A stretch of DNA of 64,000 bases, from assembly GCA_965250305.1 (NCBI GenBank), contig CBDFNS010000023.1, forward strand, positions 182,623 through 246,622, given 5' to 3'. The notes beneath the pieces were generated by a model. The model ran no database searches and was not told the DNA's origin. It was given only the letters and a program-made list of their open reading frames with translations. Position numbers and translations under genes: made by a program. The DNA comes from Candidatus Multivoradales bacterium (GTDB lineage: Bacteria; Acidobacteriota; Thermoanaerobaculia; Multivoradales; J023). Every line of letters starts with the position of its first letter. The stretch's first letter is position 1. Of the stretch, positions 3,552 to 39,300 are shown one piece after another.

Positions 3552-4544
3552 TCACGCGCGGTCGATTGGAAACGCCATCACCTCGTCGATCGACTGTGCG
3601 CCGGTCGCGATCATCAGCAAACGATCGATGCCGAGAGCAACACCGGCACAGGGTGGCAGACCGGCTTCCAGCGCTACGAGGAGGCGTTCGTCTAGCGCAA
3701 CGGCGGCGAGACCTGTGGCGCGACGTCGCTCGAGGTCGGCCTCGAATCGACATCGCTGCTCACGGGCGTCGCACAACTCGTGGAAGCCGTTGGCCAGCTC
3801 GGTGCCTTCGATGTAGACCTCAAATCGCTCGGCCACCGGTGGGTCATCGTTCGTGACGCGGGCGAGGGCGGCTTGCGACGCGGGATAGTCCAGTACGAAA
3901 GTGGGGCGCAGTTGGTCGCCCTCGCTCCGGCCGAGGTGAGGCTCGATCACGTGGCAGCCGAGCAAGTGCAGCCAGGTGTCGCGATCCGCGTCGTCGAGCC
4001 CGACGGCCTCGATTCCGGCTTTCGCGGCGCAAGTGGCAAGTGCCTCGGCGTCGGCGTGGTGCGCATCGACGTCGAGGTGCTCTTGGAAGAGGCCCGCGTA
4101 GGTGCGTCGTTCTGCGGGGGCGGTGCCAAGCGTCGCGGCGAGCAGCGCGTCCATCTCATCCATCAAGGCATGGTGGTCGAATCCAGGTCGATACCACTCG
4201 AGCATGGTGAACTCAGGGTTGTGCATCCGGCCCGACTCGTCGTCACGAAACGCCTTGCCGATCTGAAAAATCGGACCGCTTCCCGCGGCCAACAGCCGCT
4301 TCATCGCGTACTCGGGTGATGTTTGGAGATACCGAGTCGCCGGGCCTCCGGGCAGTGTCACTCGGGTGCTGAGACCGTGCAGGTGCAGGTCGGTAACGCC
4401 CGCTGTGGCCAGCGCCGGGGTCTCGACTTCCAGCACACCGCGAGCATCGAAGAAACGGCGGATCGTCGCGAGCATCGCGGCCCGAACTCGCAGCGTGTCG
4501 AGGGATGCGGTCGGTCGCCAGTCCACTACGCGCGCCGAGGCCAC
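3552..4544 (-). CDS. epmA: EF-P--(R)-beta-lysine ligase EpmA (PoxA/GenX, class II LysRS paralog)
   Basis: N-terminus aligns with EpmA (..[17 protein letters not shown]..) and class II aaRS motifs are present ([22 protein letters not shown]). GTG start at 4544 overlaps the efp stop. Confidence 0.9.
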
Positions 4545-5107
4545 TATGCGCGCGAGACGTACTCGCCGGTGCGGGTATCAATCTTGAGGGTGTCGCCTTC
4601 GTTGATGAAGAGCGGCACGCGCACGACGGCGCCGGTCTGGAGTGTGGCGGGTTTGTTGCCGCCCGAGGAGGTATCGCCGCGCAAACCAGGATCCGTCTGG
4701 GTGACCTCTAGGGTGACGAAGTTGGGCGGTGTGATCGAGATCGGGTTGTTGTTCCACAGTGTGACGTCACATTTATCCTCTTCTTTCAACCACTTCGCGA
4801 CATCGCCCACAGCATTCTTGTCGGCCTCATGCTGTTCGTAGGTGTCGGGGACCATGAAGTGATAGTGGTTGCCGTCGTTGTAGAGGTACTGCATGGTCGT
4901 TTCGACGACATCGGCAGCCTCGATCGACTCGCCCGACTTGAAGGTCTTCTCGAGCACCCTGCCGGTATTGAGATTGCGCAGCTTGACGCGGTTGAACGCC
5001 TGGCCCTTGCCGGGCTTGACCACCTCATTGTTGATGATCGAGCAAGGGTCGTTGTCGAGCATGACTTTGAGACCGTTCTTGAACTGGTTGGTGCTATAGG
5101 AAGCCAT
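4544..5107 (-). CDS. efp: Translation elongation factor P
   Basis: [50 protein letters not shown] is a near-canonical EF-P sequence. ATG at 5107 has a GAGGA RBS. The ORF-track N-terminal extension is rejected. Confidence 0.93.
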
Positions 5108-5313
5108 GATGTCCTCGCAGCGATCGCGCGCGATCTGCTTGGTTCTTGTTCGAGTTGTAGCTGCCGAGCACGGCAACGGGGCGCTGATTCTAGCGCGAAG
5201 CGAGGTTGCGGGCCACCACCCTATCTCGATGTCTAGGACGAGGCGAACTTGCCGGGGCTTCTGTTGCCAAGGGCCCAGCGACCTCCGAATCAGAGTTCAG
5301 CGACCGCACCCAC

Positions 5314-5392
5314 GTTAGACGTGGATGGGCGTAACGCGGCCATTGATCGTGCGGAAGACGATCGGCCGGCCGCATTTGTTGCAGGTATACAT
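5314..5392 (-). CDS. Candidate 25-codon small ORF (MYTCNKCGRPIVFRTINGRVTPIHV) with a single CxxC
   Basis: GGAG is 5 nt upstream of an ATG in the efp upstream intergenic region. It lies out of frame inside ORF-track entry 5190..5498. Coordinates are approximate. Confidence 0.15.
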
Positions 5393-5527
5393 GGCGGCTC
5401 CATGAGCGGTCCTTTGACAGGCCACCGGAATGCAAATACACTGTCAGGGTAAGGCTCTGGCGGTGTTTTGCACTTCCAGCCCCCGTTAGCTCACCCAATG
5501 TGGGTAGCCCGTCTCAAGGCGTGAGGG

Positions 5528-5560
5528 GAAGTAGGCCGTGGGGTTGCAGCCCTACGGCCT
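5528..5560. terminator. 11-bp-stem GC-rich hairpin (aggccgtgggg-ttgcag-ccctacggcct) just 3' of the XRE-ImmA gene
   Basis: Seen directly in the sequence. It sits a few nt beyond the 5566 stop at the low-GC island boundary. Confidence 0.35.
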
Positions 5561-5565
5561 CTTGC

Positions 5566-6699
5566 TTATTGCGCTAGATTCTTTCTCCTTCGCCAAGCGT
5601 CGAGCGAAGCGACTCCAGCCGTTTCTTGGTAGGCACTTACGTCAATACCCGAGATCTTCTGGAACAGGGATGGAGACCAGCCAAGCTCATTTGCGATGTC
5701 AAGCGGCGATTCCCCAAGGTATGCCTCCAACCGAGCAATTGCTCCAGTAAGGAGTTCAGGAATTTCCGCAGCAGGCTCGTTTGGTTCCGGTATTTTGCCG
5801 TGGAGCCACCCCTTGGCGCTCATGTATTTGTACGAACGGCGGTACTCCGAGGGGCCGATCAGATCAAGGTCAAAGGCTCGGCGGATGATCGCCGGAGCAC
5901 TGACTTTCCAAGATCGCTTGAGTTCGAAGATTGCAGCCCAGCTCGGCTTCCTCATGGCGATTCTGTAGTCTTCGGAGAATGGCTGCCGCGGCAGAAGAAA
6001 TGCACTCGCGAATCGGTTCGCCTGACCTTCCGTTTCCTTGTCGCCCGTGTTCTGGCCGGTGTGAATCACCAGGTGGCCAAGCTCATGAGCCGCGTCGAAC
6101 CTCGATCGAGAAGCGCTCCCCTTGAAGCTGTTCAGGACAACTACACTCGTTCTTCCTGCCCGCGAGAAGGCGTCGATCTTCTTGGTGTCCTCCGCCAGCT
6201 TGCTGACTACGACACCGCCATTCTCAAGCACGCGGATCGTGTTTGAGATTGGGCCACTACCTAGCCCCCAGTGTTCTCGAGAGGCCTTGGCCGCTTTCTC
6301 GATCTCCTCGTAGGAGCACGCCTGGATCGCTGGTACCGAATCCTCGGGAAAATCAATCTTCCGCTTCAGCGTTTCGACCAGCATCCCAAGCAATGAGCCT
6401 GTGGCAAACACCTTGCTCTTGAGCTTTTTCGGCGTAGTGCTTCGGTGCCGCAGGTGGTACCCACGCCCAGAGTCATCGTGTTCAACACGCCTCGGATCAC
6501 GAAAGAACGACACCTCGACCTCTAAAGTCTCAGCTAAGGCACTAGCCAGGAGCCCCGAGGCTTCACGGTTCCCCCGCTCGATTTGGGACAGGGTTGGCGC
6601 AGAGATGGCAACCTTCTCTCCCAGCATCTTGAGACTCATTCCGCTTGCCATCCGAGCCAACCTAATTCGCTGCCCTACTGAGCTAGCTTCCATCTCCAT
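5566..6699 (-). CDS. Fusion protein: XRE-family HTH + ImmA/IrrE (COG2856, Peptidase_M78) zinc metallopeptidase domain
   Basis: N-terminal HTH (VGQRIRLARMASGMSLKMLGEKVAISAPTLSQIERG). The C-terminal domain carries HELGHLVIH (HExxH). ATG at 6699 (MEMEASS) has an AAGGGG RBS. Local GC is about 56% against about 67% in the flanks. Confidence 0.8.
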   Translation of the reverse strand: MEMEASSVGQRIRLARMASGMSLKMLGEKVAISAPTLSQIERGNREASGLLASALAETLEVEVSFFRDPRRVEHDDSGRGYHLRHRSTTPKKLKSKVFATGSLLGMLVETLKRKIDFPEDSVPAIQACSYEEIEKAAKASREHWGLGSGPISNTIRVLENGGVVVSKLAEDTKKIDAFSRAGRTSVVVLNSFKGSASRSRFDAAHELGHLVIHTGQNTGDKETEGQANRFASAFLLPRQPFSEDYRIAMRKPSWAAIFELKRSWKVSAPAIIRRAFDLDLIGPSEYRRSYKYMSAKGWLHGKIPEPNEPAAEIPELLTGAIARLEAYLGESPLDIANELGWSPSLFQKISGIDVSAYQETAGVASLDAWRRRKNLAQ

Positions 6700-7321
6700 G
6701 ATCCCCTTGATTGTTCCGCGTGCCCTGGACAGGGAATTGCAGCGGATGGGGAAGCTCGACAGCCTCCCTCCGGGGACGGATGGGGGCGACGGCTTCAACC
6801 TCGTCTAGCGGGATCGGCCACGCGTTGTGCGGCCGGCCTTCCTCGTCAAACTGCACGACCGTAACAGATTCGGCACGGCCAAGTGCGTCCGTCTCAACCG
6901 CTAGCCGAAACGACATCTCAAGGTCCGGGTCCTGAGCGAGGTCAAGGCACAATTGCTGCGCCCTGAGCTCCGGGAACCTTCGATTCAGGGTCCGGTTCGT
7001 CGAATCGGCAGGACCACCTTTGTAGAACCGGAAGGGAACGCCAGCGACGCTAAAGACAAATTTGAGCCCCGCATCCTCGATGATGGAGAGCCACCCTTCG
7101 TACGGCTCTTCGGCAACGGCAGTGGCTATCGCGAAACAGACTCGGGAATAGGCTCGACAACCAAGGCTCCATGAATTGTCGCCACGGCTTGATTCATGAA
7201 GAGAAGATGCTTCGAGGCGAGCCTGGACAATCAGATTGCCGACGAGTCTCAATCGCTCCGACGTAAGCCCAGGATGGATTTCCCATGGTTCTCTTGGTTG
7301 CATGCGCGTCATCTTAATCAT
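6683..7321 (-). CDS. Hypothetical protein, promoter-proximal partner of the XRE-ImmA gene
   Basis: ORF 6683..7339, with the start placed at ATG 7321 (MIKMTRMQ); 7312 and 7303 are alternatives. It overlaps the downstream gene start by about 17 nt. It has no recognisable domain and shares the low GC of that gene. Confidence 0.45.
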   Translation of the reverse strand: MIKMTRMQPREPWEIHPGLTSERLRLVGNLIVQARLEASSLHESSRGDNSWSLGCRAYSRVCFAIATAVAEEPYEGWLSIIEDAGLKFVFSVAGVPFRFYKGGPADSTNRTLNRRFPELRAQQLCLDLAQDPDLEMSFRLAVETDALGRAESVTVVQFDEEGRPHNAWPIPLDEVEAVAPIRPRREAVELPHPLQFPVQGTRNNQGDHGDGS

Positions 7322-7554
7322 TTGTCTCGGATTTTGCAATAGTTCTGTTTCGTCAATCTGTTTTGGTTTTCCGGAAACGTGATTGTTTCGTCATGTGAGA
7401 CTCGTTTAGAGTTCAATGTCTCTCTCTCGCCGCAGTAATCACGTGGGCGCCGACAGTATCCATAGGCGCGTGCGCACGCGCCGTGGGCCACCGTAGCGCG
7501 TTGATGGCTTGTCCGTGGCTTGTCCGTGGCCGGGCGACGCGCTACGGTGGCTTC

Positions 7555-8568
7555 ATGGCGACGTCCGTGACTCGATCGGTTCCACTGTGGCAACGAAGCT
7601 ACCAACAGGCCGTTTCGAGCGTTGGTGAGCTGCTCGATTTGTTGGAGCTCGCGCCGGCCGATGTCGATGCCAGTGTCGCTGCGCAGCGGGATTTTCCACT
7701 CCGTGTTCCGCGTGTTTTTGTTGCCCGCATGCGTCCCGGGGATGCTCGAGATCCCCTGCTGCTCCAAGTGTTGCCCGCGACCGCGGAGATGCGGTCGCGA
7801 ACGGGGTTTGATCACGACCCTTTGCAAGAAGCGAATGTGTCGCCCACCCCCGGCCTCTTGCGCAAATTTCACGACCGGGCGTTGCTGATCACCACTGGCG
7901 CTTGTGCTGTTCATTGTCGGTACTGTTTTCGGCGTCATTTCCCCTACGCCGAGCATGGTTCGTGGGGCTCGGCTTGGGAGGGTGCGTTGGCGTCGCTACG
8001 GGCCGATCCAGCGATCACGGAGGTCATTCTCAGCGGCGGCGATCCACTGAGTATGCGCGATGATCGCCTGGCCTCGCTCGCCGATGCCTTGGCAGCGATT
8101 CCCCATCTCGAGCGGTTGCGGGTCCACACCCGATTGCCGGTCGTACTGCCCGAACGGGTTGACGATGGCTTGCTGGCGTGGCTTGCTGGGAGCCGGCTTG
8201 CACCGGTGGTCGTGATTCACGCCAACCACGCTCAGGAGATCGGGAGCGAGGTCCGCCAAGCCTTGGCGCGACTGGGGGCCGCTGGCGTCACCTTGCTCAA
8301 CCAGTCTGTGATGCTGCGGGGTGTCAATGACAACGCCGAGGCCCTGATCGCGCTCAGCGAAGCGCTGTTTGCCGCCGGCGTGATGCCCTACTATCTTCAC
8401 CAGCTCGATCCCGTTGCGGGAGCGGGTCACTTTCAGGTCGGTGAATCCGAGGCTCGTGCGATGGTCGCGGAAATGATGCGGCGCCTTCCCGGTTACCTGG
8501 TGCCACGCCTGGTGCGCGAGATCCCCGGGGCACCGGCGAAGGTGCCGGTGCCCGTGGATCCACGTTAG
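7555..8568 (+). CDS. epmB: EF-P beta-lysylation protein EpmB (lysine 2,3-aminomutase family, radical SAM)
   Basis: CAVHCRYCFRRHFPY (the CxxxCxxC radical SAM motif) in the KamA/EpmB context. The N-terminus aligns with E. coli EpmB starting from MATSV (ATG 7555). Confidence 0.9.
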   Translation: MATSVTRSVPLWQRSYQQAVSSVGELLDLLELAPADVDASVAAQRDFPLRVPRVFVARMRPGDARDPLLLQVLPATAEMRSRTGFDHDPLQEANVSPTPGLLRKFHDRALLITTGACAVHCRYCFRRHFPYAEHGSWGSAWEGALASLRADPAITEVILSGGDPLSMRDDRLASLADALAAIPHLERLRVHTRLPVVLPERVDDGLLAWLAGSRLAPVVVIHANHAQEIGSEVRQALARLGAAGVTLLNQSVMLRGVNDNAEALIALSEALFAAGVMPYYLHQLDPVAGAGHFQVGESEARAMVAEMMRRLPGYLVPRLVREIPGAPAKVPVPVDPR

Positions 8569-10552: not shown

Positions 10553-11045
10553 GAGCTGGACCAAAGAAGAATCGCATGTGGAAGTCAGACCAAGGAGAAC
10601 GAGCAGTGACCTCCGCCCGTCGGCACGGGCCGGGAGCTACGCGAGGCCCGGATGGTCCTGCTTGGGGAACGTCTGAATTCTGACACACGCTTGGACTCGA
10701 TCACACGAACCTCAATCTTGGCGGCACCCGTTCGAGCGCAACAAATGCGGTGCGGACCACCGTCGTCGGTTTCGGCTCCGATGGGCCTACGCCAACATGC
10801 ATAGGATCCCGACTCCGTCTGCGACGGCAAGGTCAATGAGGCCCGATCACGATTCTTCCACTAAGCGCGAGGCTCGCACCAGCAGATGTATTCCGCCAAG
10901 CTATTCACCGATATGATCCGATCGGCGGTTTTAGCCGTGTGACGCTGCCCTACGCACATATACGAAATCAGCAGAGAGTTCCCGCCGAGTGGCCATGGCA
11001 GGATCTCTCTCCGAGTCACATCTTTCGATTGGCTTCACGTTTCTC

Positions 11046-12422
11046 GGTACGGGAGTTATGCTCGAATCTTGTGTATGAGGAGCAAATCAGGTGGCGTATC
11101 CTGAATCGGATCTCCAAGTTCGATTCACCCTCAACAACGAGGAGATACGCCATGACCGAGAATACAATAGTCCCGATTCGACAGCCGGAAGCCCCCCGAG
11201 ATGCTCTGACGGCGGTGCTTCGGGTTGGTGCCCGCCAGCTACTTGCCGAAGCGATCGAGTCTGAGGTCGGCTCGTTCCTCGCCGAGTACCGCCAGGAACG
11301 CGACGAGATTGGTCGCCAGCGCCTCGTACGCAACGGCTATCTGCCGGAGCGTGAGATCCAAACAGGCCTTGGTGGGGTGCCGGTAAGAGTGCCTCGTGTC
11401 CGCGATCGGGTGGCAACGAAGGGCGATGGTTTGCAGTTCCGCTCGAAGCTCGTGCCACCCTACCTTCGTCGCGCCAAGAGCGTGGAGGAGCTTCTGCCGT
11501 GGCTGTACCTTCGAGGGCTCTCCACGGGCGACTTCTCTGAAGCCCTTGGTGCTCTTCTGGGTCCGGATGCTCCCGGCCTGTCAGCGCCGACGGTCAGCCG
11601 ACTGAAGAAGGTTTGGACGAAGGACTACGAAGGTTGGCGGGTTCGCAATTTCACGGACAAGCGGTACGTGTACGTGTGGGCTGACGCCATCCATTGCAAG
11701 GTGCGCCTCGACGACGCCAAGCTGTGCTTGCTGGTGCTGATCGGAGCTACAGACGACGGCAAGAAGGAGCTGATCGCCGTCGAGGATGGGTATCGTGAGA
11801 GCGCGGCTTCGTGGACGGAAATGCTGCGCGGCCTCGAAGCCCGTGGTCTCTCCATCGAGCCTGAACTGGCGGTCGGTGACGGAGCGCTCGGTTTCTGGAA
11901 GGCGCTTGCTCAGGTCTGGGGCAACACGAAGAAACAGCGTTGTTGGGTACACAAGACGGGAAACGTCCTGAACTACCTGCCGAAATCGGTGCAGCCAAAG
12001 GCCAAGCAAGCGCTTCATGAAATCTGGATGGCCGAGGAAGCCTTCGACGCCTTCGTGACCATCTACGAGGCCAAGTATCCGAAGGCGACCGCTTGCCTGG
12101 AAAAGGACCGAATCGAGCTGCTCGCCTTCTACGACTTCCCGGCCGAACACTGGGCTCACCTGCGAACGACAAATCCAATCGAATCGACCTTCGCAACAGT
12201 CAGGCTGAGGACCGCCAAGACTCGTGGTTGCCTCTCTCGGCAAACGATGCTGACCATGGTCTTCAAGCTCTGCCAGGCTGCCGAGAAACGATGGCGAAGA
12301 CTACATGGTTACAAGCTGCTCGCTGACGTCATCAGAGGCGTCAAGTTTGTCGATGGAATCCGAGAAGACAGGATCGCCGCCTGATACTCCGTACACAACA
12401 ATTGACCATAGCTCTCGGTACG
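11046..12422 (+). mobile_element. IS256-family insertion sequence with about 35-bp imperfect terminal inverted repeats
   Basis: Left end ggtacgggagttatgctcgaatcttgtgtatgagg (11046-11080) matches the reverse complement of the right end ctccgtacacaacaattgaccatagctctcggtac (12387-12421) at about 27/35 positions. No clear 8-bp target duplication was seen. Confidence 0.65.
11152..12384 (+). CDS. IS256-family (mutator-type) transposase
   Basis: 410 aa from the ATG at 11152 (RBS GGAGATACGCC ATG) and typical IS256 Tnp architecture. The ORF-track start at 10939 is an artefactual upstream extension. Confidence 0.88.
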   Translation: MTENTIVPIRQPEAPRDALTAVLRVGARQLLAEAIESEVGSFLAEYRQERDEIGRQRLVRNGYLPEREIQTGLGGVPVRVPRVRDRVATKGDGLQFRSKLVPPYLRRAKSVEELLPWLYLRGLSTGDFSEALGALLGPDAPGLSAPTVSRLKKVWTKDYEGWRVRNFTDKRYVYVWADAIHCKVRLDDAKLCLLVLIGATDDGKKELIAVEDGYRESAASWTEMLRGLEARGLSIEPELAVGDGALGFWKALAQVWGNTKKQRCWVHKTGNVLNYLPKSVQPKAKQALHEIWMAEEAFDAFVTIYEAKYPKATACLEKDRIELLAFYDFPAEHWAHLRTTNPIESTFATVRLRTAKTRGCLSRQTMLTMVFKLCQAAEKRWRRLHGYKLLADVIRGVKFVDGIREDRIAA

Positions 12423-12685
12423 GTCGCTTAAGCCGCTCGGCCTCCGGGGCCTTGACTCGTCATTGGCATGGCGGTATGTTCCCCGGAGTACACTCTTGCC
12501 TGGCAGCGCAGCTCAATGACCACGGTGGCGTAAGACCGTTAAGGGTGCCTATCGGGCTTCGTAGAAGTTTGTAGAATAGAACGTAAAGTTCACCAAGCCC
12601 AACGTTCGCATTCACCTGTATGGCCGAGTAGAAGTACCTCGAAGTATGCAGAACTCAGACAACGATCAGTCGGGGGTCATTCTCG

Positions 12686-14353
12686 ATGTCGGCACAAATG
12701 CAAGCGCCTCTGAAAGTTAGCCTCTCAAAGCCCGTAGGGACACTTGCTGCAGTTGGTGGTGGCTTGCTTATTGCGATCTCTCTTCTCGGTTTTTCATGCG
12801 CGTACTTTGTAGCTAGAGCCGTGCACCGGGCGCTACTTGAGGAAGGTGGCGAGCTGCAGGGGAGAGAATTTGGTGCAACCCTGCTACTTGGGCTAGGTGG
12901 GATCGCCTTGTTGGGATTCTTTGTTGTAGGCCTCGGGGAATGCATAGCAGGTGTCAGGAGACTATTACGTCCAGAACTCGAAGTGCCTGGCCCTGAACCG
13001 TTTCGCGACTATCAAGGGGAAGTGACCTCCGCTCTTGCCGAAGGAATACTAAAGGTGTACGGAAGTCTGTCTGGGCGGCTTCGACTACTGTTCGGCAAGA
13101 ACATTGTCTCTCTTCCGCCTGTGTCCCACAAAATCGTTGCGCGAAATGGGAACTCCATCTTTCGGCGGGTCTTTACCATTCCGACTCTAGTCTTCGTTCT
13201 CGCGATAATGTATTTTCAAGGTGCGGGCCTCGCGCTTATGTTCCCCTTCGTGCTGCTGGTAGTTGCGGGATTCGTTCAAACAGCAGTCGAATACTGCTTC
13301 TCGAAGGCGCTGGTTGCAGAACGCCCGGCCGAGGCCAACGTGGACCACGCGTCCCGACACTACAAAGGGTTTGGGCACCCGACTCACCTGTTTTCACGGT
13401 TGCCGATATCCGCGAGCCAGCTCGCGCTTCCAGGGTATCCGAATAGAGTCTACAAGTGGGGTGAAACGGAAAAGCCCGGAGTGGTAAGGGACACTGGCGA
13501 GTTTTCAGCCACGCTCTTTATTGAGCGCCAGCCTCAGGTATTGGATACTGAAAGCTCTGCGGCCGGCAAATGGCTTGTTGCGACTGGCTGGGCCTGGAGG
13601 TTACTCTCTGCCGCTCTCTTGGTCTTCGTCTTCACGCCTGCGGGAGGCTGGGTCACAACGTCGGGCCCGGGTACCGTCCTCCTTGTTGCAGCAGTATCAC
13701 GTCTATTCCATAAAGGAAGTGTTTACAAACGGCAGGGCGTTAGCCTGCTTGATTCGCTTCGCTTCAGTTCTATCGGGGCTCTCCTCAACGTCCAGGGAGA
13801 GATCTCCCGAGCTAATGTAAAGATTGGCGGAAATTCTGTCGATTCCGTTGGCTCTGAGACCTTAGCGACAAGGTCGAACTTCACGGTGCAGCTGTCGGCA
13901 GCCGAACTCCTAAGCGAAGCAGTTGCCGTAGATGAATCGCGGCATCTACTCCAGTTGCGGAGATCTGATGCGAGCGAGCAATGGACTAGTGAGATCCTAG
14001 AAGGAATCGAGGCGCTCAGAGAGGAACGAGTTAGGCTGGTCGGTATCGAAACGAGTTCGTCTGAGTTCGTAGAGATGGCGGAGGTGAATCGGCAGCTACT
14101 GGCTGAAAGGGCTGCTTTGCTGAGTACGCCTCGGGCACCGGTCGTAGTGAGATCAGAACCTCCTTCGAGTCCAAGACTGCCGGAAATCTCGGATTCAGGC
14201 AAGAACCAAGACGGTTTAGATGAGCCGGCTGCAGGCTTCAAGGATTGTCCCGATTGTGCGGAGCGCATTCGGGAAGGCGCGCGGAAGTGCCGATTTTGCG
14301 GGATTAGATTCGATGCTGCGGTGGCAGGCAGTCCGGCAAAGGGAGTAGATTGA
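12686..14353 (+). CDS. Multi-pass membrane protein with a C-terminal CPxC...CxxC zinc ribbon; function unknown
   Basis: At least 4 predicted TM segments in the N-terminal half and a coiled-coil-like middle. The C-terminus has CPDCAERIREGARKCRFCG. GC is about 50-52%, far below the flanks, and the gene is adjacent to the IS256. Confidence 0.6.
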   Translation: MSAQMQAPLKVSLSKPVGTLAAVGGGLLIAISLLGFSCAYFVARAVHRALLEEGGELQGREFGATLLLGLGGIALLGFFVVGLGECIAGVRRLLRPELEVPGPEPFRDYQGEVTSALAEGILKVYGSLSGRLRLLFGKNIVSLPPVSHKIVARNGNSIFRRVFTIPTLVFVLAIMYFQGAGLALMFPFVLLVVAGFVQTAVEYCFSKALVAERPAEANVDHASRHYKGFGHPTHLFSRLPISASQLALPGYPNRVYKWGETEKPGVVRDTGEFSATLFIERQPQVLDTESSAAGKWLVATGWAWRLLSAALLVFVFTPAGGWVTTSGPGTVLLVAAVSRLFHKGSVYKRQGVSLLDSLRFSSIGALLNVQGEISRANVKIGGNSVDSVGSETLATRSNFTVQLSAAELLSEAVAVDESRHLLQLRRSDASEQWTSEILEGIEALREERVRLVGIETSSSEFVEMAEVNRQLLAERAALLSTPRAPVVVRSEPPSSPRLPEISDSGKNQDGLDEPAAGFKDCPDCAERIREGARKCRFCGIRFDAAVAGSPAKGVD

Positions 14354-36156: not shown

Positions 36157-39100
36157 TCAACGCCACTCGCCTTGGAGGACGAAGCCGGCCCAGTAGTAGG
36201 GTGCTGACCACGCGGGCTCCCGCAGCAACTCGCGCTGCGCGCGGCGGAGCGCCGCGCCTGCCGCCAGACCGTCGACCAAGAGTGCCTGATAGAAGCGCGC
36301 CATGAGCTCCGCCGTGGCGCGATCATCGACCGGCCACAAGCTGACCAGCAGGCGTTCTGCGCCAGCATGGAAGAAGCCATGGGTGAGCCCGACCAAGCCT
36401 TCGCCGGCCATCGCTTTTCCGAGTGCACTGCGGCAAGCGCTGAGTGTGACCAAGTCGGCGTTGAGTTCGAGGCCGTAGATCTCGTGCATGCGCAAGAAGC
36501 CGTCGATCGGCTCGCCTTGTTGGTCCAAGCTGGACAAGGCGATGCCGGAGAGTTGGGGCTCAGTGGTATTAATGATCGCGTGGGTGGCGAAGTGAACGAT
36601 CCGGAAGCCCGCGAGCGTGCCGTCCAAAATGGTATCCCGACGAGCGTCGAAGCCGATGGCCGCCCAACGCCGGTCGGGGTGCGCGTGGGCGAGGATGGCG
36701 TCGGCCTCCCGCGTGGTGAAGGGCAGACGCCGGAATGGTGCCCCAGGCTGATCGATGGCCTCGGGCGCACTGGGGAAGGGCTCCAGCCGGACTCGACTGT
36801 CGCCGAGGCTGAAGACTGGATCGGCCACGACCGCCACCAATCCTGATGGCGTTGCACGGCCGGCCCGATGGCGCCGCAGCACGGCCAGCACCGAGGCCGA
36901 CGGAAGATGCAGCACCTCGTGCGATTCGACCAGCGGCGCGGCGTCGTGGCAATGGTCGAGTTGGGCTGGATCCGGCAAGGCGGCAAGAGGCAGTGTCCGT
37001 AAGGCTCCGTCTGCGGCGATGAGCAGGCGGCGGCTATCGAGCACGGCTGCAGCAGGTGCCAGCACCAGACGGGTCAGGGCGCACAGCGCTTCGCGGCCAG
37101 CCACGGCGGTCTCCCGGCGGGCACTGCGTTGGAGCAGTGCATGGGCGCGTTGGGCCACGGGTTCCACGATGTGACGTGGCGGCAGCTCGAAGCTGTGCAG
37201 GGTGTCGTTGCCGAGTACCCACAAATAGCTCGCTTGGTCACCGAGCCAGTACTCGAGCAACAGGGTGTGCTCGTCGAGCAAGTCGCGTTGCAACTCCGTG
37301 GGGCTCAGTGGCTGAGGCTCGGCGAAGTCGCCGGACTGGCTACGGCTGGCGCGGATCTCGTCGGTAACGGCGGTCAGGGCTTCCAGGTTGTCGCGAAAGC
37401 GACGTTGGGCCGCGATGTGTTGGACGCGGGTGGTACCGCTCCTGTTGTCTTCGTTGGCAAGAATCTGGAGCTGGCTGGCGCTCTTGCTGAGGGCATGTCC
37501 GAGTGCCTGCTCCCGGCTCAGGAGCGCGGGATCGGCACCTCGACGAAGCTCGGTGCCGGTCGCCGCGAGTAGATCCAGCAACGAGCGGGCGCGGGCTCGC
37601 TCGCTTGCCGCCAACCCCTGCCGATCCCAACCACCGGATGGACTGCGCCGGTGTTGGTCCATGGCGATGGCCATCTCCAAGGTGTAAGCGTCCTGAACGG
37701 TGGCGGTGGCGAGATACGAGGTACGTCGCGCCGTCGCCAGGGCGCGTCCGCGCAGTGATTCGAAGATTGCCAGCGCATCGCGGACAGATGACCAGGCTTG
37801 ATCGAGCATGCCCATCCGGCGCTGTGCGGCGGCGATCGCGACCAGGACTTCGGCCTCGCCGGCAGGCTCACCGGTGTGGCGATGGAGGTTGAGTGCCCGG
37901 GCCAAGACGTCGAGCGCTTGCTCGGGGTGCCCGACCTGATTCTCAAGGGTACCGAGGAAGAGCAGGATGTGGGCCTCGGAGCGCCGATCGTTCAAAGCAC
38001 GCATGGTGGCAAGCGAGCGCTCAAAGGCACGGCGGGCGTCGTCATATTGGTCCAAACGCTGCTGGAGGCGGCCGATCCGGCTTTCGATTACGGCGGCGCC
38101 GTAGCGGTCGTCGGTGTTGGTCGCGTCCGGAACCAAGGTCAGACTCTCGTGGAAGTAGGCGAGGGCGGCAGCGTGGTTGCCGGTGGCTGCGGCCAAGCGG
38201 CCGAGTTGATCGAGCGTGGATGCCTCGCGGCGCCGGTCGCCGATCGCCTGGCGCAGGCGTAGGGCTTCCCGCAAGCGATCATGTGCGCGATCGTATTCTC
38301 CCAAGATTCGGTGCAGTCCGCCCAGGTTGTTCAAGACGGTCGCTTTGGCAGCTGCATCGTCGAGGCCGTTGATTCGGTCGAGTGCCTCCTGATAGGTCTC
38401 GATCGCGACCTGGAGCTTGCCGAGCCTGCGATAAGCGACGCCGAGGTTGGTGAGGGTAATCGCGACGCCACGGTCGTCGCCTGCCCGCCGGCGTAGCGCC
38501 ACGGCGCGCTGGTAGCCGGCCGCGGCGGCGGCCAAGTCACCCGCAAGGAAGTGGGCGCGGCCCAGGTTGTGCCAAGCCATGGCGCCGAGCGCGTCGTCGC
38601 CCAGACCTTGAAAGAGATTGGCAGCAGTGGCGCTATGGTCGGCGGCAGCGGCGAAATGCCGTCGACTTGCTTCGACCAGCCCCAGGCGGTGTTGGGCCGA
38701 CGCCTGTCCCCATTGATCGCCTAAGGCCCGCCAGCTGCCGAGGGCCTCGTGGTAGGCGACCGCGGCTTCGTCCTCCGCTCCCTGGTCGTAGAGCCGCTCG
38801 CCAGCTGCGAATGCCGTGTAGGCGCGCGCTTGCTGTCGGTCTTCGTCGGTCGCTGGCCGACACGCCTCAACCCGCAGCGCGTAGGTGCCGGTTTCCTGGC
38901 TGGCGAGCGCGCGGACGATCATGTGGTGGGGCCCAGTCTCTCGCGCGATCAACGCCACCCGCTCGCGACCGAATTCCTCGGTCGGCCCGTCCGCGACCAA
39001 CAGGGCCTCGCTGGCGGGGGCAGCCATGGTGACTTCGACGTCAGTACCGTGTTGCTCGACCACGATCCGCAAGAACATGCCAGCGTCGAGATCGACATCG

Positions 39101-39300
39101 TAGCGATGGATTTCTTCCGCGTCGATCGCGCGCTCTACAGCCTCGCCCGCCGCTGGCAGTGTCCTGATATCGGCGGGCGGTGCAGGTTCCTTGATGGGCT
39201 GCTCAACGACGGTCGTGCGCTCGTGGCCGCAGGCGATGGTGCAAAGCGCCGCGGTCAGCCAGGCAGCGAGGAAGGTGTTCGGCCGGATGCGGCCGGCCAT
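36157..39300 (-). CDS. TPR-repeat protein with a C-terminal CHAT (caspase-like) peptidase domain
   Basis: Multiple TPRs (AxxxYxxALxLxxxxGD repeats). The C-terminus has HFATHAI ... LVTLSACRS, the His/Cys dyad of the CHAT domain. Its start overlaps the anti-sigma stop (TAATG). Confidence 0.85.
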   Translation of the reverse strand: MAGRIRPNTFLAAWLTAALCTIACGHERTTVVEQPIKEPAPPADIRTLPAAGEAVERAIDAEEIHRYDVDLDAGMFLRIVVEQHGTDVEVTMAAPASEALLVADGPTEEFGRERVALIARETGPHHMIVRALASQETGTYALRVEACRPATDEDRQQARAYTAFAAGERLYDQGAEDEAAVAYHEALGSWRALGDQWGQASAQHRLGLVEASRRHFAAAADHSATAANLFQGLGDDALGAMAWHNLGRAHFLAGDLAAAAAGYQRAVALRRRAGDDRGVAITLTNLGVAYRRLGKLQVAIETYQEALDRINGLDDAAAKATVLNNLGGLHRILGEYDRAHDRLREALRLRQAIGDRRREASTLDQLGRLAAATGNHAAALAYFHESLTLVPDATNTDDRYGAAVIESRIGRLQQRLDQYDDARRAFERSLATMRALNDRRSEAHILLFLGTLENQVGHPEQALDVLARALNLHRHTGEPAGEAEVLVAIAAAQRRMGMLDQAWSSVRDALAIFESLRGRALATARRTSYLATATVQDAYTLEMAIAMDQHRRSPSGGWDRQGLAASERARARSLLDLLAATGTELRRGADPALLSREQALGHALSKSASQLQILANEDNRSGTTRVQHIAAQRRFRDNLEALTAVTDEIRASRSQSGDFAEPQPLSPTELQRDLLDEHTLLLEYWLGDQASYLWVLGNDTLHSFELPPRHIVEPVAQRAHALLQRSARRETAVAGREALCALTRLVLAPAAAVLDSRRLLIAADGALRTLPLAALPDPAQLDHCHDAAPLVESHEVLHLPSASVLAVLRRHRAGRATPSGLVAVVADPVFSLGDSRVRLEPFPSAPEAIDQPGAPFRRLPFTTREADAILAHAHPDRRWAAIGFDARRDTILDGTLAGFRIVHFATHAIINTTEPQLSGIALSSLDQQGEPIDGFLRMHEIYGLELNADLVTLSACRSALGKAMAGEGLVGLTHGFFHAGAERLLVSLWPVDDRATAELMARFYQALLVDGLAAGAALRRAQRELLREPAWSAPYYWAGFVLQGEWR

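Follow-up and report, generated by a model that had tools for sequence, protein, structure and literature searches.

Two overlapping minus-strand genes lie within the elongation factor P (EF-P) modification cluster in a 64,000-nucleotide (nt) stretch of a contig from Candidatus Multivoradales bacterium (CBDFNS010000023.1; here the window, in whose positions all coordinates are given unless a locus is named). They stand between efp and epmA, both on the minus strand, and epmB on the plus strand. The first gene, an rmrT-like toxin gene (6683..7321), encodes 212 amino acids (aa) as called from the ATG at 7321 and is defined by its open reading frame (ORF) together with PADLOC and PHROGs matches. 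The second, an rmrA-like antitoxin/regulator gene (5566..6699), starts with the ATG at 6699 and stops at 5566; its product of 377 aa comprises an XRE helix-turn-helix (HTH) domain, an ImmA/IrrE (M78) zinc peptidase domain and a conserved C-terminal region. We refer to them below as rmrT and rmrA. The 3' end of rmrT and the start of rmrA share exactly 17 nt (6683..6699), as read directly from the sequence, and an AAGGGGA Shine-Dalgarno sequence stands immediately 5' of the rmrA ATG.

A first-pass annotation of this DNA had described the same two ORFs with the same overlap, giving them lengths of 213 and 378 aa. Both ORFs are present and the overlap is exact; the lengths are to be corrected to 212 and 377 aa, and a public protein collection holds gene calls of identical length for both products. 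For rmrT, the N-termini of relatives fit the ATG at 7303 (the third in-frame ATG, giving a protein of 206 aa that begins MQPREPW) better than the ATG at 7321, with which the public gene call begins.

Family membership of the two products

RmrA carries an HTH_3 domain (aa 12-65; 6505..6666; Pfam E value of 1e-10) and a Peptidase_M78 domain (aa 162-274; 5878..6216; E value of 1.3e-15), both encoded on the minus strand. The HELGH motif of the peptidase is encoded at nt 6087-6073, the third ligand, E224, lies downstream in a "ETEGQANRFASAFLLP" motif, and a FASAFLLP motif is also present. The zinc-site residues H205, E206, H209 and E224 are invariant across nine aligned antitoxins in a collinear alignment, and the FRHRxTTP linker motif that comes after the HTH is kept in the aligned RmrA proteins. 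Alignment of RmrA with the antitoxins that accompany RmrT relatives is likewise collinear, with identities of 35 to 66%. Fourteen PADLOC RmrA models match the fusion, the best of them, PDLC03943, with an E value of 1.7e-74 across nearly the whole profile (aa 9-359 against positions 4-352 of 370), and in PHROGs the match is phrog_2439 (E value of 1.8e-84).

The upstream partner had been described as having no recognisable domain. This description is right for Pfam and NCBIfam, in which, as among PDB sequences, searches with RmrT give no match, and wrong for two other collections: the PADLOC RmrT model PDLC03929 matches with an E value of 9e-12 (aa 16-149 of the 218-aa ORF against positions 5-129 of 198), and PHROGs returns phrog_5786 (E value of 2e-11). 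All 42 aligned relatives match PDLC03929 as well, the best with an E value of 2.3e-25. A word-seeded search for relatives yields 52 clusters, and an exhaustive profile search yields 757 family representatives at 50% identity, of which 268 reach an E value of 1e-30 or less. Family members are essentially all single-domain proteins of about 200 aa, with no fusions in the best 150. The residues conserved at 85% or more over 187 RmrT sequences include R23, R35, D48, W51, C55, W77, E118 and R139, all of which are kept here. The partner matches a toxin model and not a mundane metabolic family, the outcome that the first-pass annotation had named as speaking against its proposal.

The pairing itself is conserved. 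In every locus read (L001, L002, L083-L087 and L162-L167), the RmrT relative is directly followed by a gene for an HTH + M78 protein, and the identity of RmrA tracks that of RmrT, as in the closest relative pair, L162, with RmrT 61% and RmrA 66% identical. The genomic surroundings of these pairs are diverse. One pair (L001:8001-9738) stands between sucB (E2) and lpdA (E3) of a 2-oxoglutarate dehydrogenase cluster, another instance of the module within a housekeeping gene cluster, and in L002 the antitoxin is broken into two gene calls. Two unrelated loci have the pair beside Gabija-like genes: in L083 (8800-11626) it adjoins an OLD-TOPRIM AAA gene and a UvrD-like helicase gene, and on a Sphingobium plasmid (L166:6817-10412) genes for an AAA ATPase and a UvrD-like helicase follow in the same orientation 82 nt downstream. 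PRTRC genes and a gene for an HD-domain protein, possibly a dGTPase, lie near the pairs of L163 and L164; in Salmonella houtenae (L165) the pair stands downstream of trmE, with an integrase and a D5 primase as neighbours; and the pair of L167 lies on an IMG/VR viral contig. A P4-like island is also among the contexts. Twelve plasmid records carry a relative. As a separate observation, a CHAT/TPR gene occurs near the RmrTA relative in L083, and a similar 1047-aa protein with TPR and CHAT (caspase-like) domains is encoded in the window at 36157-39300 on the minus strand.

An XRE HTH–M78 fusion, a full-length RmrA match, an adjacent co-oriented RmrT match and a pairing conserved across unrelated contexts, four of the features looked for in a RosmerTA system, are all found at this locus. 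We consider it highly probable that the pair is a RosmerTA-type two-gene toxin–antitoxin (TA) or abortive-infection module, horizontally acquired and lodged in what is normally a divergent promoter region of about 100 nt between efp and epmB. The RmrA and RmrT family matches and the constant pairing support the earlier proposal that the fusion is the antitoxin and its partner the toxin; toxicity and a defence function would be expected of this pair from its family membership. The prediction of Makarova 2009 for XRE-COG2856 fusions, accurately cited in the first-pass annotation (PMC2701414), now goes by the name RosmerTA and has been put to the test (bioRxiv 10.1101/2022.05.11.491447; PMC10440598).

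An accessory pair in the efp/epmB gap

The flanking genes are as first annotated, since EpmA, EF-P and EpmB all exceed NCBIfam equivalog or Pfam cut-offs. On the minus strand, epmA (3552-4544) scores 403.7 bits with TIGR00462, and efp (4544..5107) matches EFP_N, EFP and Elong-fact-P_C and encodes a KPGKGQAF lysine loop; on the plus strand, epmB (7555..8568) scores 454.7 bits with TIGR03821 against a cut-off of 369.3. The most likely start of epmB is the ATG at 7555, given that homologue alignments mostly begin at residue 24-36 of the 361-aa ORF. A DUF455 gene and a pair of extracytoplasmic function (ECF) sigma and anti-sigma genes are also among the neighbours.

How unusual is this arrangement? 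From 154 EpmB loci in two collections, 117 could be judged (EpmB at least 45% identical, with sufficient upstream sequence). In 101 of these, efp is divergent and directly adjacent to epmB, with a gap of 103 nt at the median and a range of 30 to 774 nt, and an RmrA or RmrT gene occurs in none of the 117. Here, the distance from the efp ATG (5107) to the epmB ATG (7555) is 2447 nt. The composition of the extra DNA is also different. The GC content of 5566-7480 is 0.565, compared to a window mean of 0.618 (standard deviation of 0.027 for windows of the same size), placing it in the lowest 2.3%, so that the "clearly lower GC" reported earlier is confirmed and amounts to about 2 standard deviations; the GC content at third codon positions (GC3) of the two genes is 0.62 to 0.64, compared to 0.69 to 0.82 in the neighbours. 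Given a gap of 2447 nt in place of about 103 nt, and lower GC and GC3, the pair is accessory DNA inserted in the divergent efp/epmB promoter gap.

The two 774-nt gaps among the comparators belong to Thiothrix spp. (L043 and L049) and are filled by a VapBC pair (L043:7284-7981), consisting of a PSK_trans_fac antitoxin (E value of 3.7e-24) and a PIN toxin (E value of 1e-17) unrelated to RmrTA. The efp/epmB gap has thus been used at least twice by TA modules, RmrTA here and VapBC in Thiothrix.

Another question is whether the pair came in as a defined element, since the first-pass annotation had proposed a small integrated element with the intergenic region as its landing site. The insertion is supported; the element and its landing site are not. 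The 3 kb or so to each side of the pair contain no recombinase or integrase gene, and a search for repeats around it, direct or inverted, that might be att sites or target-site duplications gives only 10-13-nt matches, at chance level. Scans of genome and metagenome contigs with EpmB peak at 59% full-length or 65% partial identity and provide no empty site in a close relative. These results do not support a site-specifically integrated element, and neither is an ImmR/ImmA-type mobile-element switch supported, as no integrase, excision or lysis-lysogeny genes adjoin the pair. DNA homology to other efp genes stops at about 5108, and DNA similarity to the closest relative pair (L162) stops within the coding regions (5639-6872) and hence yields no module ends.

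Among mobile genes, the closest is that of an IS256-family transposase (10939-12384, plus strand), about 3.6 kb away beyond epmB. After this IS256/Mutator-family gene (Pfam E value of 4.9e-56) the GC content drops to about 0.55 (12000-14300), the minimum of the window and lower still than in 5566-7480. This 12-14 kb stretch encodes a 555-aa protein whose sole recognised feature is a C-terminal zinc ribbon and may be a second accessory island near the EF-P cluster.

Several noncoding features accompany the pair. The region upstream of rmrT is AT-rich (7322..7450, GC content of 0.45, read on the minus strand), and 7340-7480, with a GC content of 0.50, is in the lowest 1.1% of 141-nt windows. The best relaxed promoter match for rmrT, TTGCAA-17-TAAGAT at 7339-7311 (8 of 12 positions), is a weak candidate; it would possibly start transcription at about 7303-7305, near the ATG at 7303, and so give a leaderless rmrT mRNA. 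A direct repeat, TGACGAAACA, occurs at 7346-7355 and 7384-7393 in the same region. At the other end, a GC-rich hairpin with a 12-bp stem (5533..5560) lies 5 nt downstream of the rmrA stop, with a T-run on the plus strand only, and is likely the end of the rmrA transcription unit. Between the efp start and the module, the spacer 5108..5532 (GC content of 0.61) holds no credible ORF and is taken as noncoding: a CxxC ORF, MYTCNKCGRPIVFRTINGRVTPIHV (5316-5393, minus strand, 25 codons), was considered and rejected, and neither it nor any other ORF of the 458-nt left spacer has a Pfam match or relatives in 164 loci. The top sigma-70-like site of the region lies in 5414-5570 on the plus strand (TTGACA-17-TACACT, 10 of 12 positions) and is aimed at the hairpin and T-run of 5533-5570; site and hairpin could delimit an RNA of about 120 nt convergent with the rmrA 3' end (z score of -2.8; no Rfam match).

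Immediately before epmB, a perfect 15-bp inverted repeat (7487-7501/7537-7551, plus strand) with two tandem copies of TGGCTTGTCCG in its loop ends 3 nt short of the epmB ATG. The hairpin folds at -65 kcal/mol (z score of -5.1), burying the GGTGG ribosome-binding site; the repeat, which no Rfam family covers, occurs once in the window. It may represent either the right-hand junction of the insertion or a leader structure of epmB. In an Rfam search of 5000-7700, the sole match is a hairpin resembling mir-4861, whose 24 bits fall short of the gathering score of 100.

Proposed mode of action and competing explanations

RmrT and RmrA were named RosmerTA by Millman 2022, who found that an rmrA deletion could not be transformed and that the system defends against phage (bioRxiv 10.1101/2022.05.11.491447). 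Ernits et al. 2023 identified the ImmA/Rosmer antitoxin (NetFlax node D25) as a hub for many unrelated toxin families, with the toxin gene first in 58% of cases, and showed for one member, that of Gordonia phage Kita, that the toxin is active and (partly) neutralised and that the pair protects against phage (PMC10440598). In transposon sequencing (Tn-seq) of other species, rmrA is essential, and dependence on Clp is tied to RmrT: ClpX is essential only in the three Rosmer-carrying Pectobacteriaceae strains, the paper that reports this also cites RmrT-dependent ClpP essentiality in E. coli E101, and RipB needs ClpX to counter RipA in Streptococcus pneumoniae.

By analogy with other Rosmer systems, RmrT would be a growth-arresting effector held harmless by RmrA. 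Two roles are probable for RmrA: its HTH would repress the operon, and its peptidase domain would neutralise RmrT, likely helped by host ClpXP. The peptidase, when triggered, probably cuts its own HTH-bearing chain or the toxin, if the precedents of ImmA/ImmR, IrrE/DdrO and CapP/CapH apply; the FRHRxTTP linker of RmrA and a conserved V(D/E)LPPP..EP stretch in the disordered tail of RmrT are candidate cleavage sites. Phage infection or another stress would then be expected to break this control, releasing RmrT and stopping the infected cell.

What might RmrT attack? The protein is acidic (isoelectric point of 5.3), and no transmembrane or membrane-anchoring segment can be found in it, the highest 19-aa Kyte-Doolittle mean being 1.27. 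Since it is free of any membrane segment, the subfamily is expected to act on an intracellular target and not by membrane depolarisation, with nucleic acid as a weak first guess. The structure prediction proposed for the partner gave a confident model without a significant structural neighbour: AlphaFold2, with the 42-sequence alignment, produces a globular protein (predicted local distance difference test [pLDDT] score of 83; predicted template modelling [pTM] score of 0.73) in which two long helices, three strands, a helix and three further strands are followed by a disordered acidic tail, the core being described as alpha-beta-beta-beta-alpha-beta, and Foldseek finds nothing at an E value of 0.001 or less in PDB and BFVD. 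Nonsignificant matches include DpnI, MGME1, VRR-NUC and a PDDEXK exonuclease, and the order of secondary structure is weakly compatible with a PD-(D/E)xK core. The strands where D...(D/E)xK would be expected carry a conserved FxF and PFRFY instead. A nuclease-like RmrT with a PD-(D/E)xK-like fold is kept only as a weak lead, because the canonical catalytic motif is absent. A more speculative and rather unlikely proposal is that PDLC03929-type RmrT (about 750 clusters at 50% identity, about 200 aa, soluble, without a significant structural neighbour) could be a new intracellular effector, perhaps with a degenerate restriction-endonuclease-like fold that uses D48, C55, E118, R139 and E143, and that the efp/epmB gap is a recurrent TA insertion hotspot, perhaps coupling expression of the pair to the EF-P modification genes.

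A number of results count against the assignment to a phage-defensive RosmerTA module. The PDLC03929 match of RmrT spans only 63% of the profile, and our literature search found no experimental data on this RmrT subfamily. RmrA scores 132.8 bits with the NCBIfam equivalog of the spr1629 repressor/antitoxin (NF052239), well under the 335-bit cut-off, and is thus related to that protein and no equivalog of it. In the promoter region placed at 7340-7480 by the first-pass annotation, the AT-richness holds, and the promoter comes down to the weak relaxed match, as a strict sigma-70 scan of the minus strand upstream of rmrT finds no site. The repeat TGACGAAACA is rejected as an operator: allowing at most one mismatch, the window contains 7 matches where 3.7 would be expected, a count that 12 of 100 shuffles also reach and that is not significant. 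Finally, no defence genes flank the pair in the window, so that the local context does not favour a defence role over an addiction role.

This last point bears on the most serious competing explanation, a plain chromosomal addiction (postsegregational) TA pair with no anti-phage role, which persists because its loss is lethal. The pair does stand alone without neighbouring defence genes, the essentiality of rmrA in Tn-seq of other species is what addiction would predict, the Rosmer-family RipAB acts in competence and has no known defence role, and an unrelated VapBC pair sits at the same site in Thiothrix. The tested Rosmer systems protect against phage, however, and relatives of the pair adjoin Gabija-like genes and occur in phage-satellite and viral contexts. 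We regard pure addiction as less likely than the module we favour, yet quite possible; addiction and defence roles are not mutually exclusive. Could the pair instead be what is left of an ImmR/ImmA- or CapH/CapP-like switch from a decayed mobile element or defence operon, with RmrA as a damage-sensing repressor/protease, the partner as regulated cargo and no toxin at all? RmrA is also matched by the PADLOC models capP (E value of 6.7e-18) and capH (E value of 5.7e-5), both ICEBs1 and the radiation response of Deinococcus are under the control of COG2856/XRE pairs, and some 690 nt of extra noncoding DNA around the pair could be decayed cargo. But the full-length RmrA models outscore capP by about 190 bits, the spacer ORFs have no family matches, no integrase, excisionase, phage or cyclic oligonucleotide-based antiphage signalling system (CBASS) genes lie within about 3 kb on either side, and, however the surroundings vary, the gene immediately upstream of the fusion is always one of the partner family. 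Such neighbours and such a fixed one-gene partnership make a decayed switch unlikely.

It has also to be asked whether the position in the EF-P modification cluster is functional, with the XRE protein domesticated as a regulator of efp and epmB. The pair splits their shared promoter region, and the -65 kcal/mol hairpin that buries the epmB ribosome-binding site lies beside the rmrT promoter region. However, the composition of the pair is foreign, its relatives live in contexts as unrelated as sucB/lpdA and plasmids, and such a role is very unlikely because none of the 117 EpmB loci shares the arrangement.

For the RosmerTA-type module that we favour, the architecture is already named, modelled and tested, and the "unknown partner" of the first-pass annotation falls into a catalogued RmrT family. 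The genes are better annotated as rmrT and rmrA (RosmerTA) than as "hypothetical protein + XRE regulator," which matters little beyond annotation, and the efp/epmB cluster of this organism is to be read as broken up by accessory DNA. The RmrT subfamily is well populated, confidently foldable, without an assigned activity and distinct from the sole characterised, membrane-active RmrT, making it a reasonable candidate for biochemistry on how Rosmer toxins kill. Two unrelated TA pairs in the efp/epmB gap of different lineages offer a small example of modules settling in housekeeping divergent promoters.

Comparison with known systems

The pair shares with RosmerTA its two co-oriented genes, an antitoxin with an XRE HTH and an ImmA/IrrE zinc peptidase, an RmrT-matching partner, the toxin-first order with overlap, and relatives on plasmids, (pro)phages and islands. 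It differs in that the toxin is a divergent branch of RmrT subfamily PDLC03929 and in that the pair lies alone within a housekeeping cluster, outside a defence island. RmrT(D5)/RmrA(D25) of Gordonia phage Kita has the same antitoxin architecture, whereas its toxin depolarises the membrane and ends in a C-terminal membrane region, unlike the acidic, globular RmrT found here, which is without a hydrophobic segment; the mode of toxicity is expected to differ accordingly. RipA/RipB (Spr1630/Spr1629) of S. pneumoniae, a member of the Rosmer family, likewise combines an XRE + ImmA-like antitoxin with an upstream toxin, and neutralisation by RipB is ClpX dependent. RipA targets the sliding clamp DnaN, and RmrA here falls under the spr1629 equivalog cut-off.

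Thiothrix VapBC is a TA pair at the same efp/epmB position, but its proteins are unrelated, its antitoxin gene comes first and its gap measures 774 nt. ImmR/ImmA of ICEBs1, DdrO/IrrE of Deinococcus and CapH/CapP of CBASS use the same domains, one an XRE repressor and the other a COG2856/M78 metalloprotease that cleaves the repressor after DNA damage. In these systems, the two domains are on two proteins that control a mobile element, a regulon or a defence operon, whereas here one protein, RmrA, carries both, and its gene has one small effector gene as partner.

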